From assembly GCA_001785865.1 (NCBI GenBank), contig MFUZ01000002.1, forward strand, positions 22,128 through 86,127: a DNA stretch of 64,000 nt, written 5' to 3'. The notes below the pieces were generated by a model. That model did not search any database, was not told where the DNA came from, and saw nothing but the letters and a program-made list of their open reading frames with translations. This DNA comes from Candidatus Nomurabacteria bacterium RIFCSPLOWO2_01_FULL_41_18 (GTDB lineage: Bacteria > Patescibacteriota > Minisyncoccia > Phycocordibacterales > UBA9973). This document shows positions 35,250-46,198 of this stretch, piece after piece. Made by a program: the position numbers and the translations under genes. Each line of letters starts with the position of its first letter. Positions within the stretch are counted from its first letter, which is position 1.

Positions 35250-37412
35250 ATGGATAAATCTGAAGCCAAAAAGAGAACCCGCCCGACTGAACGAGATCAG
35301 GCGTTCGGGCGGGTACTAAAATTGCGGAGTGAGATCGCAAGATTGCGGAGTGCTTACCATGTGGAAAATGCGCCTGGTGTCACTGATGATGTCTACGATT
35401 CCCTTACTCGCGAATTGAAGATACTTTTAGAAAAGTATCCGGAATTCACAGATGAAAACGCTCCGGAAAACAGGGTGGCGGGTAAACCACTGGATAAGTT
35501 TGTTAAAGTGAAGCATCAGACTAGGATGCTTTCGCTCAACGATGTATTTAATGAAGAAGAGTTATTTGATTGGGAGAAAAGAATTAAGAAATTGTTGCAG
35601 GGGGGTGAGGTGAGTTATTTTTGTGAAGTAAAGTTTGACGGATTGGCTGTGTCATTAATATATGAAAACGGCCAATTTGTCCGTGGTGCGACGAGGGGCG
35701 ATGGATTTGTCGGAGAAAACATCACTCAAAATTTAAAGACCATAAATTCTATCCCCCTCTCCTTAACTAGGAGAGGGGTGGGCCGTTCAGGCTCTGAGAG
35801 CCTTCAGGCTCGAAGAGGTGAGGTGAATGGAGTTGTCCCCGCATTCCTAGAAATCCGTGGTGAAGCTTTGGTTTCCAAAAAAACATTAATAAAATTGAAT
35901 ATAGAAAACGAGAAAAAAGGTGATCAATTTTTTGCGAATACCAGAAATGTGGCAGCAGGAAGCTTGCGACAGCTTGATCCACAGCTTGTAGCTGAAAGAA
36001 AATTAGATTTTGTTGCCTATGACCTAATCGAAGCAAATTCTTTGCAAACTTTGCTAAATCACTCAGAAAAACATGCATATCTAAAAAATATAGGTTTCAA
36101 AGTTGAAAAATTAGAAGCTAAATGTAAAAATTTAAGCGAAGTAATTGCTTTTATAAAAAAATTTGAAAAAATAAGACCAGATTTCCCATACGGCACGGAC
36201 GGGATCGTGATCTCAGTAGACAACTTGAAGATGCAGGAAACTCTTGGAGTTGTCGGTAAAGCGCCACGCTTTATGGTGGCCTTCAAGTATCCAGCGGAAA
36301 AAGCTACGACCATCCTAAAAGAAATTTTGGTAAATGTCGGACGTACTGGAGTCCTCACACCGCTTGCAGTTTTTGAGCCGACTTTGGTGGCCGGCTCTCT
36401 GGTATCGAAAGCGACCTTGCACAACATGGATCAGATCGATAGGCTCGATCTCAAGATAGGGGACACTGTAGTGATAGAGAAAGCCGGCGATGTGATCCCA
36501 AAAGTTGTCGAAGTTTTGATCAGAATGCGTACAGGAAAAGAGAAGAAATTCAAAATGCCGGAAAAATGCCCGACTTGTGGAGGTAACGTGGAGAAACTGA
36601 AGATTTCCTCCGGATTCCTCCAGCCTTCGGCTAGAACCTTCCCCGTTCAGAAATCTTCAGTTTCTCCACGTTCAGTGGCCTTCTATTGCTCCAACCCAAA
36701 ATGTCCGGCAAAGGATGAAAGATATTTAGAGCATTTTGTGTCGGTTTTTGAAATATATGAGCTTGGACCGAAAATTTTAAGGCGTTTTAAGGATGAAGGC
36801 TTGATTACGGACGCCGCAGACATATTTACACTTACTAAAGAAGATATTGCTCCTTTGGAGAGGTTCGGAGAAAAATCAGCAGAGAATATAGTAGAAGAAA
36901 TAAAAAACAAAAAGAAAATATCGTTTTCAAGATTTATTTGGGCGCTCGGTATATTGCATGTGGGGGAAGAGACTGCGAGAGATCTGGCACAACACTTTGG
37001 TACTTTGGAAAAATTAATTTCTGCTGTTAATCACAATCAAACAGAAATAGATAGCATCGAAAATATTGGTCCAGCTGTGTTAAAAAGTGTCGATAATTTT
37101 TTTCAGGACAAGAATAATCTGAATTTTATTAAAAAACTGCAGGAAAACGGGGTAGTGATAGAAAAAAAAGAAAAGAGAAAAAAGGGGAAGTTTACCGGAC
37201 TCACTTTTGTCTTGACTGGCACGCTCTCCGGCATGTCGCGAGAGATAGCCAAAGAGAAAATAATGTCTTTGGGAGGTAAAGTGTCTGGCTCGGTTTCAAA
37301 ACATACTTCATGCATCGTTGCTGGCGTAGAACCTGGGTCTAAATTGAAAACAGCGGAAAAGTTGGGAGTAAAAGTCTTGAATGAGAAAGAATTTTTAAAT
37401 ATGCTAGGATAG
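35250..37412 (+). CDS. ligA: NAD-dependent DNA ligase LigA (carries two in-frame repeat insertions)
   Basis: An adenylation-domain 'KxDG'-type region, OB fold, a Zn finger 'CPTCGGNV...CSNPKC', HhH and C-terminal BRCT. Confidence 0.95.
35754..35826. repeat. family-1 repeat inserted in-frame in ligA (encodes ...[26 protein letters not shown]...)
   Basis: CCCCTCTCCTTAACTAGGAGAGGGG hairpin, then GGCTCTGAGAGCC, then CAGGCTCGAAGAGGTGAGGTG. This is the reverse orientation of the 6114 element with an extra module. Confidence 0.75.
36597..36660. repeat. family-2 palindromic element in-frame in ligA zinc-finger region (encodes [19 protein letters not shown])
   Basis: Terminal inverted repeat CTGAAGATTTC...GAAATCTTCAG flanks the TTCCTCCAGCCTTCGGCTAGAACCTTCC core. 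Confidence 0.8.
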
Positions 37413-37425
37413 GTTGAATATGAAC

Positions 37426-37515
37426 GGAGGCGTCGGATAGTGGTTTATTCCACCACCTTGGAAAGGTGGCAGGCTCGAAAGGGTCTCGTGAGTTCAAATC
37501 TCACCGCCTCCGCCA
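37426..37515 (+). tRNA. tRNA-Ser (GGA), CCA encoded
   Basis: Acceptor GGAGGCG/CGCCTCC plus G plus CCA, anticodon arm CCACC-TTGGAAA-GGTGG, a long variable arm and T-arm GTGAG-TTCAAAT-CTCAC. Confidence 0.85.
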
Positions 37516-44344: not shown

Positions 44345-44350
44345 TACTTT

Positions 44351-46198
44351 ATGAAAATTTCTTACAATTGGCTTAAATGGTATATACCGGAAGCTCCTAC
44401 AGCAGAGAAACTTGTAGATATTTTCAATTATCATCTTTGTGAAGTTGAAACTTTAACTCCCATCCTTGGGGAGGAGGGGGTAGGGGGTGGTGATTATGTT
44501 TTGGATTTAAAAATTTTACCAAATCGCGCGCATGATTTACTTTCGCATCAAGGCCTTGCTCGCGAGCTTGCATCGCTTCTAAATATTCCATATGTTGACC
44601 CGACCCCGAAATACAAAATTCCCACCTCCGCTAAAGCTACGGCGGGCAAGCCTGAATTGAAAATTTATGTGAAAACATCTCTTTGCCGGAGATATATGGG
44701 AAGAATTGTGAGAAATATAAAGGTGGGACCATCACCACAATGGGTGGTCGATCACTTAGAATCAATAGGGCAGAGAAGCATAAATAATATGGTGGATGCT
44801 GCGAATATTGTTATGTATGACTGTGGTCAGCCAACTCACGTTTTTGATTTGGACAAAGTGAAAAATGAAATAATCATTCGTGATGCCAAAGATGGGGAGG
44901 ATTTGACTACACTTGATAATAAAGCAGTAAAATTAAAAAACTCAAATGTAGTAATTGCTGATTCTAAAAATGCTCTGGCTATCGCCGGCATAAAGGGCGG
45001 GAAAATTGCCGAGGTAGGCAATAATACGAAAAATATAATTCTTGAGGTTGCCAACTTTGATCCTACATCTGTTCGAAAGACAGCTCAAGCCTTAAATATT
45101 TTTACTGATGCGAGAAAGCGATTTGAAAATGATTTATCTCCAGAATTAGCGTCTTATGCAATGTTGGAGCTTTCTGCACTTATTTTTGAAATGTGCCCGG
45201 AGGCTGTTTTTGAGGATGTTGTAGATGTTTACCCGAACTCTCAAGAGGGCGGGTTTATCCGAAAACTTTCTTTTTCAACTGATAGAATTTCAAAGATTTT
45301 AGGTTTAAAGGTTTCCGATAAAGAGATAGAAGATATTTTAAAAAGGTACGTAATTAATTACGTAATTAAAGAAAACAAGTTTGAAATTACTATTCCTCCT
45401 ATGCGCCTAGATCTAGTGATAGAAGAAGATATGGCAGAAGAGATAGGCAGGATTTTGGGATACGATAAAGTAAAAGGGAATATTCCTAAAATAAACTTCA
45501 AACCAAAACAGAATGAAACTTATTCAAAGATAACTTCTGCGAGAAATAAATTGCTTGCGGATGGGTATAGCGAGGTTATGACCTATTCTTTTTGTGATAA
45601 GGGAGAGATTGAAGTGCAAAACAGCGCTTCTGATAAAAAGTTTTTGCGGACGAATCTAACTGACGGACTGAAAGAAAGCATAAAATTAAACCGCTTAAAT
45701 GCTCCGTTTTTAGGAATTGAACAGGTCAAGGTTTTTGAAATTGGAACTATGTTCAAGAAAAGTGGGGAAGAAATGCATGTGGCGTATGGAGATAAAAAAG
45801 GGATTAAAGAAGAAAAATTAGAAGAATTTAGCGAAAAGCTGGAGAAAAATTCTTTGACTTTCCTCCAGCCTTCGGCCGGAACCTTCCGTCCGAAAAATTC
45901 TTCTCCAGCTTTTCGCATGTGGTCACTTTTTCCTTTTATTGCGCGAGACATTGCTGTGTTTGTTCCTGAAAATGTAAAAAGTTCTAAAGTATTAAAAATT
46001 ATTAAAGACAATGCAGGGGATATGGTGGTAAGAGGTCCGGAGCTTTTTGATGAATTCAAAAAGGAAGGCAAAGTTTCCTATGCGTTTAGAATAGTTTTTC
46101 AATCTTATGACCGCACCCTGACAGACGGAGAGGTGAATGAAATCATGAATAAAATAACTGACAAAATTAAAGCAAATAATGGTTGGCAGGCGAGATAA
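44351..46198 (+). CDS. pheT: phenylalanine--tRNA ligase beta subunit (short form, with repeat insertions)
   Basis: N-terminal 'MKISYNWLKWYIP', a B3/B4 domain, and a C-terminal FDX-ACB-like region. Confidence 0.85.
   Translation: MKISYNWLKWYIPEAPTAEKLVDIFNYHLCEVETLTPILGEEGVGGGDYVLDLKILPNRAHDLLSHQGLARELASLLNIPYVDPTPKYKIPTSAKATAGKPELKIYVKTSLCRRYMGRIVRNIKVGPSPQWVVDHLESIGQRSINNMVDAANIVMYDCGQPTHVFDLDKVKNEIIIRDAKDGEDLTTLDNKAVKLKNSNVVIADSKNALAIAGIKGGKIAEVGNNTKNIILEVANFDPTSVRKTAQALNIFTDARKRFENDLSPELASYAMLELSALIFEMCPEAVFEDVVDVYPNSQEGGFIRKLSFSTDRISKILGLKVSDKEIEDILKRYVINYVIKENKFEITIPPMRLDLVIEEDMAEEIGRILGYDKVKGNIPKINFKPKQNETYSKITSARNKLLADGYSEVMTYSFCDKGEIEVQNSASDKKFLRTNLTDGLKESIKLNRLNAPFLGIEQVKVFEIGTMFKKSGEEMHVAYGDKKGIKEEKLEEFSEKLEKNSLTFLQPSAGTFRPKNSSPAFRMWSLFPFIARDIAVFVPENVKSSKVLKIIKDNAGDMVVRGPELFDEFKKEGKVSYAFRIVFQSYDRTLTDGEVNEIMNKITDKIKANNGWQAR
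44460..44492. repeat. degenerate family-1 fragment in-frame in pheT (encodes LGEEGVGGG)
   Basis: The reverse complement CACCACCCCCTACCCCCTCCTCCCCAAGGATGGG aligns to the 31227 element CACCACCCCGTAGCCCCTCCTCAATAAGGAGGGG. Confidence 0.5.
45347..45368. repeat. TACGTAATTAATTACGTA palindrome inside pheT (encodes RYVINYVIK)
   Basis: A perfect 18-nt palindrome related to the intergenic 28-nt palindrome at 17301. Confidence 0.55.
45842..45905. repeat. family-2 palindromic element in-frame in pheT (encodes KNSLTFLQPSAGTFRPKNSS)
   Basis: GAGAAAAATTCTTTGAC TTTCCTCCAGCCTTCGGCCGGAACCTTCC GTCCGAAAAATTCTTCTC. Confidence 0.8.

Follow-up and report, generated by a model that had tools for sequence, protein, structure and literature searches.

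The 64,000-nucleotide (nt) stretch of DNA analysed here, called the window below (contig MFUZ01000002.1 of Candidatus Nomurabacteria bacterium RIFCSPLOWO2_01_FULL_41_18), carries the genes ligA, truB, pheS and pheT, and one copy of a small palindromic repeat, named family 2, lies in frame within each of them. All positions are given in window coordinates, and all four host genes are read on the + strand. The open reading frames (ORFs) of the hosts are intact, and their products have the expected Pfam domains (NAD-dependent DNA ligase, TruB, PheRS alpha and PheRS beta, respectively). The genes and the copies are arranged as follows.

35250-37412, +, ORF of LigA
36585-36672, +, hairpin of the ligA copy, with perfect 23-nt arms AACGTGGAGAAACTGAAGATTTC and GAAATCTTCAGTTTCTCCACGTT, in the Zn-finger loop of LigA
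36599-36658, +, conserved 60-nt module of the ligA copy, with its 28-nt core at 36615-36642
37516-38379, +, ORF of TruB
38144-38229, +, hairpin of the truB copy; the inserted DNA is 38155-38226 (72 nt, 24 codons, IKNSSAFLHATRGPFRVQNSLSDL)
43559-44344, +, ORF of PheS
43759-43842, +, hairpin of the pheS copy; the 78-nt insert is at about 43769-43846, its placement being ambiguous by 3 nt
44351-46198, +, ORF of PheT
45831-45916, +, hairpin of the pheT copy, with 24-nt arms GCGAAAAGCTGGAGAAAAATTCTT and AAAAATTCTTCTCCAGCTTTTCGC, in the variable linker before the C-terminal FDX-ACB domain
45844-45903, +, conserved module of the pheT copy, with the exact 28-nt core at 45860-45887

The 28-nt core TTCCTCCAGCCTTCGGCCGGAACCTTCC is found at 36615, 43787 and 45860 with at most two mismatches (0 expected from shuffled sequences). 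The truB copy is more diverged; it lies at 38173 and was recovered by a repeat finder (38149-38224) and by a profile search. With their arms included, the elements are ~84-88 nt long, and all four form long hairpins with fold z-scores of -6 to -10 against shuffled controls, using RNA as well as DNA parameters. The places that the initial annotation gave for the four copies were borne out, all four are in one reading frame, and the element peptides that it quoted are exact. It also called the hosts four essential genes; all are housekeeping genes, but truB is generally not regarded as essential. An identical PheS is encoded by 22 independently assembled contigs from several samples, so the insert in this gene is not an assembly artefact, and artefacts are further excluded by the presence of the same element in ~20 other Patescibacteria contigs of metagenome-assembled genomes (MAGs) from unrelated studies. 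In NCBI, LigA and PheT are labelled 'hypothetical protein' (OGI68275.1 and OGI68281.1, respectively), for which the multiple in-frame inserts may be a reason.

Comparison with orthologues places the extra residues at defined points in the host proteins. In PheS, 31 residues lie between DTFWIK and VLRTHT where relatives have 5, which makes 26 extra residues; an insert relative to a 5-residue loop had thus been recognised correctly before, but its size had been put at about 30. The metagenome relatives of PheS mostly read DMQDTFWIK, 5 residues and VLRTHT, and the 5-residue loop is present in 57 of the 106 scorable homologues among the 120 best in a large protein collection. With the loop masked, PheS of the window is 94.6% identical to the empty-site protein P0012 from locus L026, and the DNA alignment with L026 reveals a single 78-nt block that is missing from the L026 pheS. 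In the solved PheS structure 2rhq, residue 108 aligns directly to residue 109 across the insert site. As for TruB, exactly 24 residues (IKNSSAFLHATRGPFRVQNSLSDL) are missing in all ten of the orthologues compared, and both flanks are well aligned. The LigA insert is situated between the second and third zinc-finger cysteines, in a loop that is short and empty in six relatives. In the case of PheT, the linker is 66-102 residues long among relatives and the window version is 7 residues longer than the commonest one; in this hypervariable linker the copy could as well be a replacement as an insertion, and its right arm overlaps the conserved native F-R of the FRMWS motif. Taken together, neither orthologues, whether close or distant, nor solved structures have the extra residues at these positions, which excludes a native motif. 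In the AlphaFold model of PheS, the catalytic core has a pLDDT confidence score of 80-96, while residues 72-98, covering most of the insert, are below 50; the low confidence for the insert is compatible with a floppy excursion, and it neither proves nor disproves surface exposure. The tolerated surface loops that the initial annotation proposed have indirect support only.

Conserved core, copy-specific arms and codon phase

The conserved module spans ~60-64 nt and has the ends RAARAATTC and GAATTYTTY. It contains a middle stem of 3-4 bp that covaries among copies (CGC/GCG, GGC/GCC, GAC/GTC, GTG/CAC), an internal loop that is asymmetric, pyrimidine-rich and nearly constant in sequence (TTTCC / AACCTTC), and an apical stem of 6-7 bp with a 3-nt loop, which covaries freely (CCACCC/GGGCGG, CCATCC/GGATGG, CCAATC/GATTGG, CCACGC/GCGTGG). 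The G+C content of the core is 60%, compared with 40% for the genome. The module is flanked by arms of 10-23 nt, which are unique to each copy and complementary within the copy. All four Watson-Crick pair types occur between positions -12 to 0 and 61 to 72, which are 75-98% paired, and pairing falls to the chance level past ~13 nt. In a gap-free alignment of 39 copies, standard pairs occupy 88.2% of the cells, against 64% when partners are shuffled and 33-50% when the register is slid, and double-sided changes are seen in 292 cells, against 92 in the shuffles. As the stems stay paired through two-sided changes while the encoded peptide varies, the similarity among copies exists at the nucleotide level, as had been proposed. 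Moreover, G·U pairs take up only 21 of 1170 cells (~13% of the non-Watson-Crick cells), which is near their chance share, and this lack of excess indicates a symmetry of the DNA-copying kind rather than a selected RNA helix. The initial annotation spoke of terminal inverted repeats; the hairpin arms do exist, but only ~9 nt (RAARAATTC) are common to the copies and the outer 10-23 nt are largely copy-specific. In one MAG, two copies at locus L011 are identical over 53 nt and the copy at L017 differs from them by 1 nt, and yet all their arms are unrelated. Near-identical cores with unrelated arms imply that the arms were made at each site and did not slowly diverge from a master copy.

The source of the arms can be read from the flanks. 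The NVEKLKI encoded by the left arm of the ligA copy corresponds in the alignment to native KVEKKEL / KIEKKNL in empty-site orthologues, and the right arm is the mirror image of the left arm and forms extra sequence downstream. The second insertion point in the L011 ligA is likewise organised, with AEQ aligned to VEQ. The 72-nt truB insert consists of the 64-nt element and, after it, CTGATTTG, which repeats the native CAAATCAG from upstream in inverted form, so that the left flank GGCAAATCAG is mirrored as CTGATTTGCC. In both ligA and truB, then, the host gene itself supplies the upstream arm, of which the downstream arm is an inverted copy. Of the 78 nt inserted in pheS, 64 belong to the element, the stretch AAGCTTCTTC repeats the upstream GAAGAAGCTT in inverted form, and 4 nt are additional; here too the upstream arm is probably native and the downstream arm its inverted copy. 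A 64-nt element keeps the frame when 8, 11, 14 ... nt are added to it, and the truB and pheS inserts fit this arithmetic. In addition, the purine fraction of the upstream arm is 0.67, compared with 0.56 for average coding sequence, and exceeds 0.5 in 29 of 38 copies, which is consistent with a native upstream arm.

The reading frame was analysed for the 38 copies that lie inside ORFs of more than 250 residues. All of them use one codon phase, 25 in forward and 13 in flipped orientation of the core. The forward frame gives the consensus KNSSAFLHPxGGTFRxQNS, and the flipped frame, which corresponds to the core turned over in place, gives ENSxxGRFxPKxGGxxKNF; the hairpin centre has the same position relative to the codons in both. 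Read as such, the core consensus is free of stop codons in all six frames, so the restriction to one phase is not trivial. Over the whole hairpin, stop codons are found in the used frame of 0 of the 38 copies and in the unused frames of 24-66% of the copies, and several copies can no longer be flipped without creating a stop. A used frame that is always open, next to unused frames with stops, is what translation of the insert would produce and argues against RNA excision or ribosomal bypass. Stop avoidance in the mirrored arm was considered as the cause of the single phase and rejected, because antisense stops amount to 3-6% per codon in all three frames. The used frame is also the most hydrophilic one, with a modest difference that is small against one alternative frame, in a test that is partly circular.

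Distribution of the family and turnover at the same loops

A degenerate pattern of the core was searched in one genome per species of bacteria and archaea. It matched 24 stretches, ~20 of which are in Nomurabacteria, Paceibacterota or 'Patescibacteria group' MAGs. The four matches outside Patescibacteria (L006, L007, L015 and L021) were rejected, as they have no flanking arms and their number is about that expected by chance for 19 specified bases according to our own estimate. Further copies were collected with a profile of the conserved 60 nt, which was run on the pattern loci and on loci fetched through PheS. In this way, 41 distinct copies were found in Patescibacteria MAG loci, in many unrelated host genes and genomes. 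The hosts are of 12 kinds: LigA, PheS, PheT, TruB, LeuRS, FAD-linked oxidase, MnmA, TypA/BipA, CCA-adding enzyme, PurH, DNA polymerase III delta' and tRNA-guanine transglycosylase (TGT). While 38 of the 41 copies are inside long ORFs, 3 are outside them. Two or three copies often occur per gene or in neighbouring genes, and as many as three are present in one ligA. In the window, the four copies are confined to 9.3 kb (36585-45916), and none is present in the other ~75 kb of the 84 kb of contig k141_333259 that were examined (L111-L114); the probability of such clustering by chance is roughly estimated at 0.005. This clustering, together with the two to four copies per gene or in adjacent genes at other MAG loci, hints at local spread. 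The core pattern had no match in virus contigs. A search of positions 35000-47000 against Rfam 15 (E <= 1) returned a tRNA and one chance-level match and nothing on the element, and a profile of the element peptide, with both orientations joined to reach the 40-residue minimum, found nothing at E <= 0.01 in a collection of 5.8 billion proteins, because the motif is too short. No report of such an element from the Candidate Phyla Radiation (CPR)/Patescibacteria was found in the literature searched, the coverage of which is incomplete, so that an earlier report is possible.

Copies at the same site in different lineages show how the element changes. Locus L029, whose PheS is 75% identical to that of the window, has its pheS copy where the window has it and shares the unusual middle stem (CCGC ... 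GCGGAGAG), with the core in the opposite orientation. The arms of the two pheS copies have two differences per side, and each of them is compensated (CTT/AAG to ATT/AAT and GTT/AAC to GCT/AGC). L029 also shares the pheT copy with the window, and its truB copy is missing. Likewise, the ligA copy of the window and one copy at L012 occupy the same position in proteins of 66% identity, and their arms differ at four positions, each matched on the opposite side. These matched changes reflect either old insertions kept matched by exchange between the arms or repeated insertions at one site. Furthermore, filled and empty PheS sites are interleaved in a rough neighbour-joining tree, and proteins that are 95-97% identical outside the loop have an empty site, a family-3 insert or an unrelated insert, which shows that inserts are rapidly gained, lost or replaced. 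In sister lineages, different inserts that also form hairpins are found in the PheS loop, in the zinc-finger loop of LigA and in the PheT linker. In close relatives (P0004-P0007, P0009, P0019, P0062, P0092 and P0113; loci L115 and L117), the same PheS loop is occupied by at least two further types of core, AFALGDxGQGTHD and ALPASGxxHEQNF. They have the same K-N-S/F ... N-S/F (RAATTY) ends and the same codon phase, and their length is likewise 26 residues where it was measured (P0006 and other 31-residue loops). This suggests a superfamily with exchangeable cores.

Several other repeats and features were observed beside the family-2 copies. A second palindromic family (family 1, CCCCTCTCCTT..AAGGAGAGGGG) is likewise read in frame, and its copies are as follows.

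35747-35784, family 1 copy in ligA
44450-44496, family 1 copy in pheT
6121-6158, family 1 copy
28454-28491, family 1 copy
31223-31262, family 1 copy
59217-59254, family 1 copy

The ligA copy of family 1 accounts for ~20 extra residues, which are missing from seven orthologues, and inserts of the GGxGGG type related to family 1 occur in PheS, LigA and PheT loops of other lineages. In pheT, a short AT-rich palindrome at 45346-45369 (GTACGTAATTAATTACGTAATTAA) shares 92% identity with another palindromic stretch at 17299-17334 (within 17299-17345). Between pheT and gyrB, an unrelated hairpin at 46207-46282 has 22-nt arms (ACCCCGTAGTAGATTTTGCCAA ... TTGGCAAAATTCACTACGGGGT) and no Rfam match above chance; it could be a terminator or another element. 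The LeuRS encoded at L022, in the ORF with a family-2 copy at 4108, contains an internal NUDIX domain (residues 436-530, Pfam E = 2.6e-15), which is another large insertion in a core CPR enzyme. Elsewhere in the window, two 41-nt copies that are 98% identical (AGCTCAGTTTCCGCCAGAGGCGGACCAGCCTTTGGCTGAGG) are located at 13475-13515 and 13842-13882, adjoining sequences with ends like the T-arm of tRNA, and a second pair is at 13797-13832 and 13888-13923; possibly this is a tRNA gene cluster with repeated inserts. In addition, a comparison of positions 1-14660 of the window with locus L113 (ANAN16-1_SAMN03842431 scaffold_1319), from a related strain, gives 99.6% identity over 10.5 kb and then ~80% in ftsH and recG, and L113 differs in gene content, with a metK gene; close Nomurabacteria have thus recombined into a mosaic here.

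Origin of the copies and comparison with known systems

Considering the insertions, the dispersal and the open used frame, the earlier view of a selfish, translated palindromic repeat resembling those of Rickettsia is the right general reading. The copies most probably belong to a family of small non-autonomous hairpin DNA repeats that reside inside genes of Nomurabacteria/Paceibacteria of the CPR and are translated with the host protein. The way in which new copies arise is a more tentative matter. Immediately after copying a core, a DNA 3' end would fold back on the palindrome, copy 8-23 nt of its own upstream flank and then return to the original template, and such a template switch would need no dedicated transposase. 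The combination of a core, a variable inverted copy of the flank, in-place inversion, symmetry of the DNA type and clustering makes a fold-back 3' end the simplest source, and we infer it with somewhat less than even confidence. If the two arms of a copy later exchanged sequence, they would stay matched and the core could be inverted, and the copies that survive would be those with a total length that is a multiple of 3 and with the phase reading (K/E)-N-S ... N-S with a Gly-rich turn, in exposed loops. Alternatively, the mover could be an enzyme that recognises the conserved loops or the RAATTY ends. A broader proposal, that the hairpins and the wider set with RAATTY ends spread without transposase by fold-back and arm exchange, with a strict codon phase that reflects the seeding of new copies from in-frame ones and not just selection after insertion, is rather doubtful at present. 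If true, it would make these repeats a self-propagating, frame-preserving generator of loop insertions in essential CPR proteins. Cassette exchange of a restriction-like kind, based on AATT motifs 48 nt apart (a multiple of three), is a speculation that fits the flipping and core swapping and does not fit the long flank-derived arms, for which it was set aside.

Several observations weigh against translated elements with fold-back arms as just described. Translation of the insert, with a predicted peptide such as NSSAFLQPSVGTFR in PheS, is deduced indirectly, from the open frames, and the single codon phase is not fully explained by antisense stops or hydropathy. Within the 90%-identity clusters of the four host proteins, which contain the same or truncated sequences only, there is no strain-level empty site, and for want of a near-identical filled/empty DNA pair the exact insertion boundaries stay inferred; the closest filled/empty PheS pair at the DNA level (P0006, P0007 and P0032) belongs to a sister family and leaves the boundaries unsettled. 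In the pheS of L052/L010, removal of the whole hairpin gives back the 5-residue loop and the arms are not obviously derived from the flank, and the arms of the copies of family 3, the sister family, in P0006 and P0007 are not obviously native either. The arm columns also have a weak consensus of E/K/Q codons, which could come from target preference, from translation constraint or from an ancestral long terminal inverted repeat. The unpaired loop bases are near-invariant, and this suggests recognition by some protein, which a polymerase-only route does not require. Finally, the check for mobilising genes covered 84 kb of one genome only; in these 84 kb, all from the source contig, no transposase-type Pfam domain was found, and the window showed no longer element that shares the ends of the repeat.

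Some of these observations would be accommodated by a classical miniature inverted-repeat transposable element (MITE), in which the whole ~85-nt hairpin is mobilised by a transposase acting in trans, the arms are fast-diverging terminal inverted repeats kept matched by exchange, and the likeness of arm and flank results from a preference for Lys/Glu-rich targets. The conserved RAARAATTC / GAATTYTTY ends, the K-N-S/F ... N-S/F ends shared by other core types, the weak arm consensus and the clean removal of the L052/L010 hairpin agree with it, as does the comparison of the window with L029, in which the arms can be seen to change in step after insertion. There is also a possible direct repeat of 6-9 nt (CTTGTT) around the L029 pheS insert, which is confounded by the ambiguity of placement. 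However, cores identical over 53 nt in one MAG have wholly unrelated arms, the left arm of the ligA copy covers conserved native residues that removal of the whole hairpin would delete, and the truB insert of 72 nt is shorter than its 86-nt hairpin and has no direct repeat. Neither a transposase domain in the 84 kb nor a longer same-ended element in the window came to light either. On the whole, we consider a classical MITE unlikely. A functional RNA or DNA structure that is selected and not merely selfish, such as an mRNA hairpin that controls stability or translation of housekeeping genes (an RNase III site) or a protein-binding site, is quite improbable as well. It would account for internal-loop bases (TTCCTCC, AACCTTCC) that are near-invariant while the stems vary with compensation, for arm complementarity that persists across lineages whose host proteins are 66-75% identical, and for hosts that are mostly translation and replication genes, and RNase III is encoded in the genome. 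Nevertheless, the loop invariance is partly a product of the search pattern and of the profile built from its matches, G·U pairs are not enriched (21/1170), which is unexpected for a selected RNA helix, and both core orientations, which give different RNA, occur at one site. In close relatives, moreover, the site is without the element or is taken by another family, and Rfam contains no matching family.

It could further be asked whether the peptide is ever made, because a stable hairpin lies within the coding region and sequence alone is no proof of translation. Removal before or during translation, by intron-like excision or by ribosome bypass as in T4 gene 60 or the yeast mitochondrial 'byp' elements, is nevertheless extremely improbable: the one codon phase and the frame-preserving length of 38/38 genic copies, and the stops found in none of the 38 used frames against 24-66% elsewhere, would be needless if the segment were skipped, and there is no stop at the upstream edge, no pair of matched take-off and landing codons, no bulge-helix-bulge geometry and no ribozyme or intron match in Rfam. 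As to a native protein motif or an assembly or binning artefact, nothing but the repeated peptide itself speaks for it, and its probability is practically negligible given that the insert is missing from most orthologues and all solved structures, that the peptide varies where the stem covaries, and that the data come from 22 independent contigs and many MAGs of different projects.

Among known systems, the closest parallel is provided by the Rickettsia palindromic elements (RPEs; Ogata et al. 2000, reviewed in PMC2229807), which are in-frame palindromic repeats of 105-146 nt in housekeeping genes. Both are small palindromes that form long stem-loops and sit in frame in conserved genes of a reduced-genome bacterium; in both, one frame is read, so that many host proteins share a similar extra peptide, and neither a clear target-site duplication nor a known transposase is associated with them. 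The family-2 element thus has the features by which RPEs are recognised, namely a long stem-loop, an in-frame position in conserved protein genes and the use of one frame. It differs in its Patescibacteria hosts and its length (~85 nt), in copy-specific arms derived partly from the host flank, in the presence of both orientations in one phase with in-place flipping, and in that the same loops are repeatedly struck by several families. We know of no sequence relationship between RPEs and the CPR element. By its anatomy and behaviour, rather than by sequence comparison, the element appears to work like an RPE, and it is not filed here as a member of the RPEs. Bacterial MITEs with ORFs (Correia/NEMIS, ERIC and YPAL; PMC2229807) are non-autonomous, shorter than 200 bp, have terminal inverted repeats and stem-loop transcripts, and sometimes form in-frame gene fusions. 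Those elements, however, are mainly intergenic and usually have TA ends, target-site duplications and identifiable parent insertion sequence families, whereas here 38 of 41 copies are intragenic, truB has no direct repeat and no parent element was seen. The coding palindromes of Nematomorpha mitochondria (PMC6649704) are long, near-perfect inverted repeats kept inside translated genes. They illustrate that hairpin symmetry can coexist with protein function, but there both arms encode conserved native protein and no dispersed core is shared, whereas the CPR repeat has a conserved mobile core and one arm that is an extra antisense copy. In quasi-palindrome template switching and rolling-hairpin flip-flop, fold-back self-copying makes or perfects inverted repeats and can invert an asymmetric centre, which leads to the same anatomy as in the CPR element. 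To our knowledge, these mutational or replicative processes act at a single locus, and no repeat family is known to spread through genes by them.

Other candidates were tried and rejected on anatomical grounds. Elements of the REP/RAYT and IS200/IS605-derived kind are extragenic, have 20-40 nt with a GTAG/CGTC head and are associated with a Y1 gene, while 38/41 copies here are intragenic and the hairpins measure 84-88 nt; no Y1 (RAYT/TnpA) transposase domain was found in the 84 kb examined. The copies do not resemble TIGR arrays (tigRNA) either, whose units have box C/D motifs and variable spacer pairs between palindromic stems, since the copies are solitary, lie inside genes, show no visible box C/D motif and combine a conserved interior with variable stems, which is the reverse of tigRNA. 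A translational bypass element is at variance with the open used frame of 38/38 copies, and the anatomy does not fit bulge-helix-bulge introns or inteins.

What is added to the known picture are the private flank-derived arms, the flip of the core, the single phase in two orientations and the turnover of several families at the same loops. CPR/Patescibacteria have some of the smallest bacterial genomes, and yet their replication and translation enzymes carry repeated, translated hairpin inserts. Given the rapid turnover of loops between proteins that are 95-97% identical, conserved proteins may owe many of their 'CPR-specific insertions' to selfish DNA and not to adaptation. Sequence alignments and phylogenies are affected by such inserts, and annotation may be as well. 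They also mark loops that tolerate 20-30 extra residues in LigA, PheRS, LeuRS, MnmA and other enzymes. Moreover, the copy-specific arms, the flipping and the single phase are sequence signatures that bear on how tiny repeats move without an evident transposase, a question that the CPR repeats share with the elements of Rickettsia.

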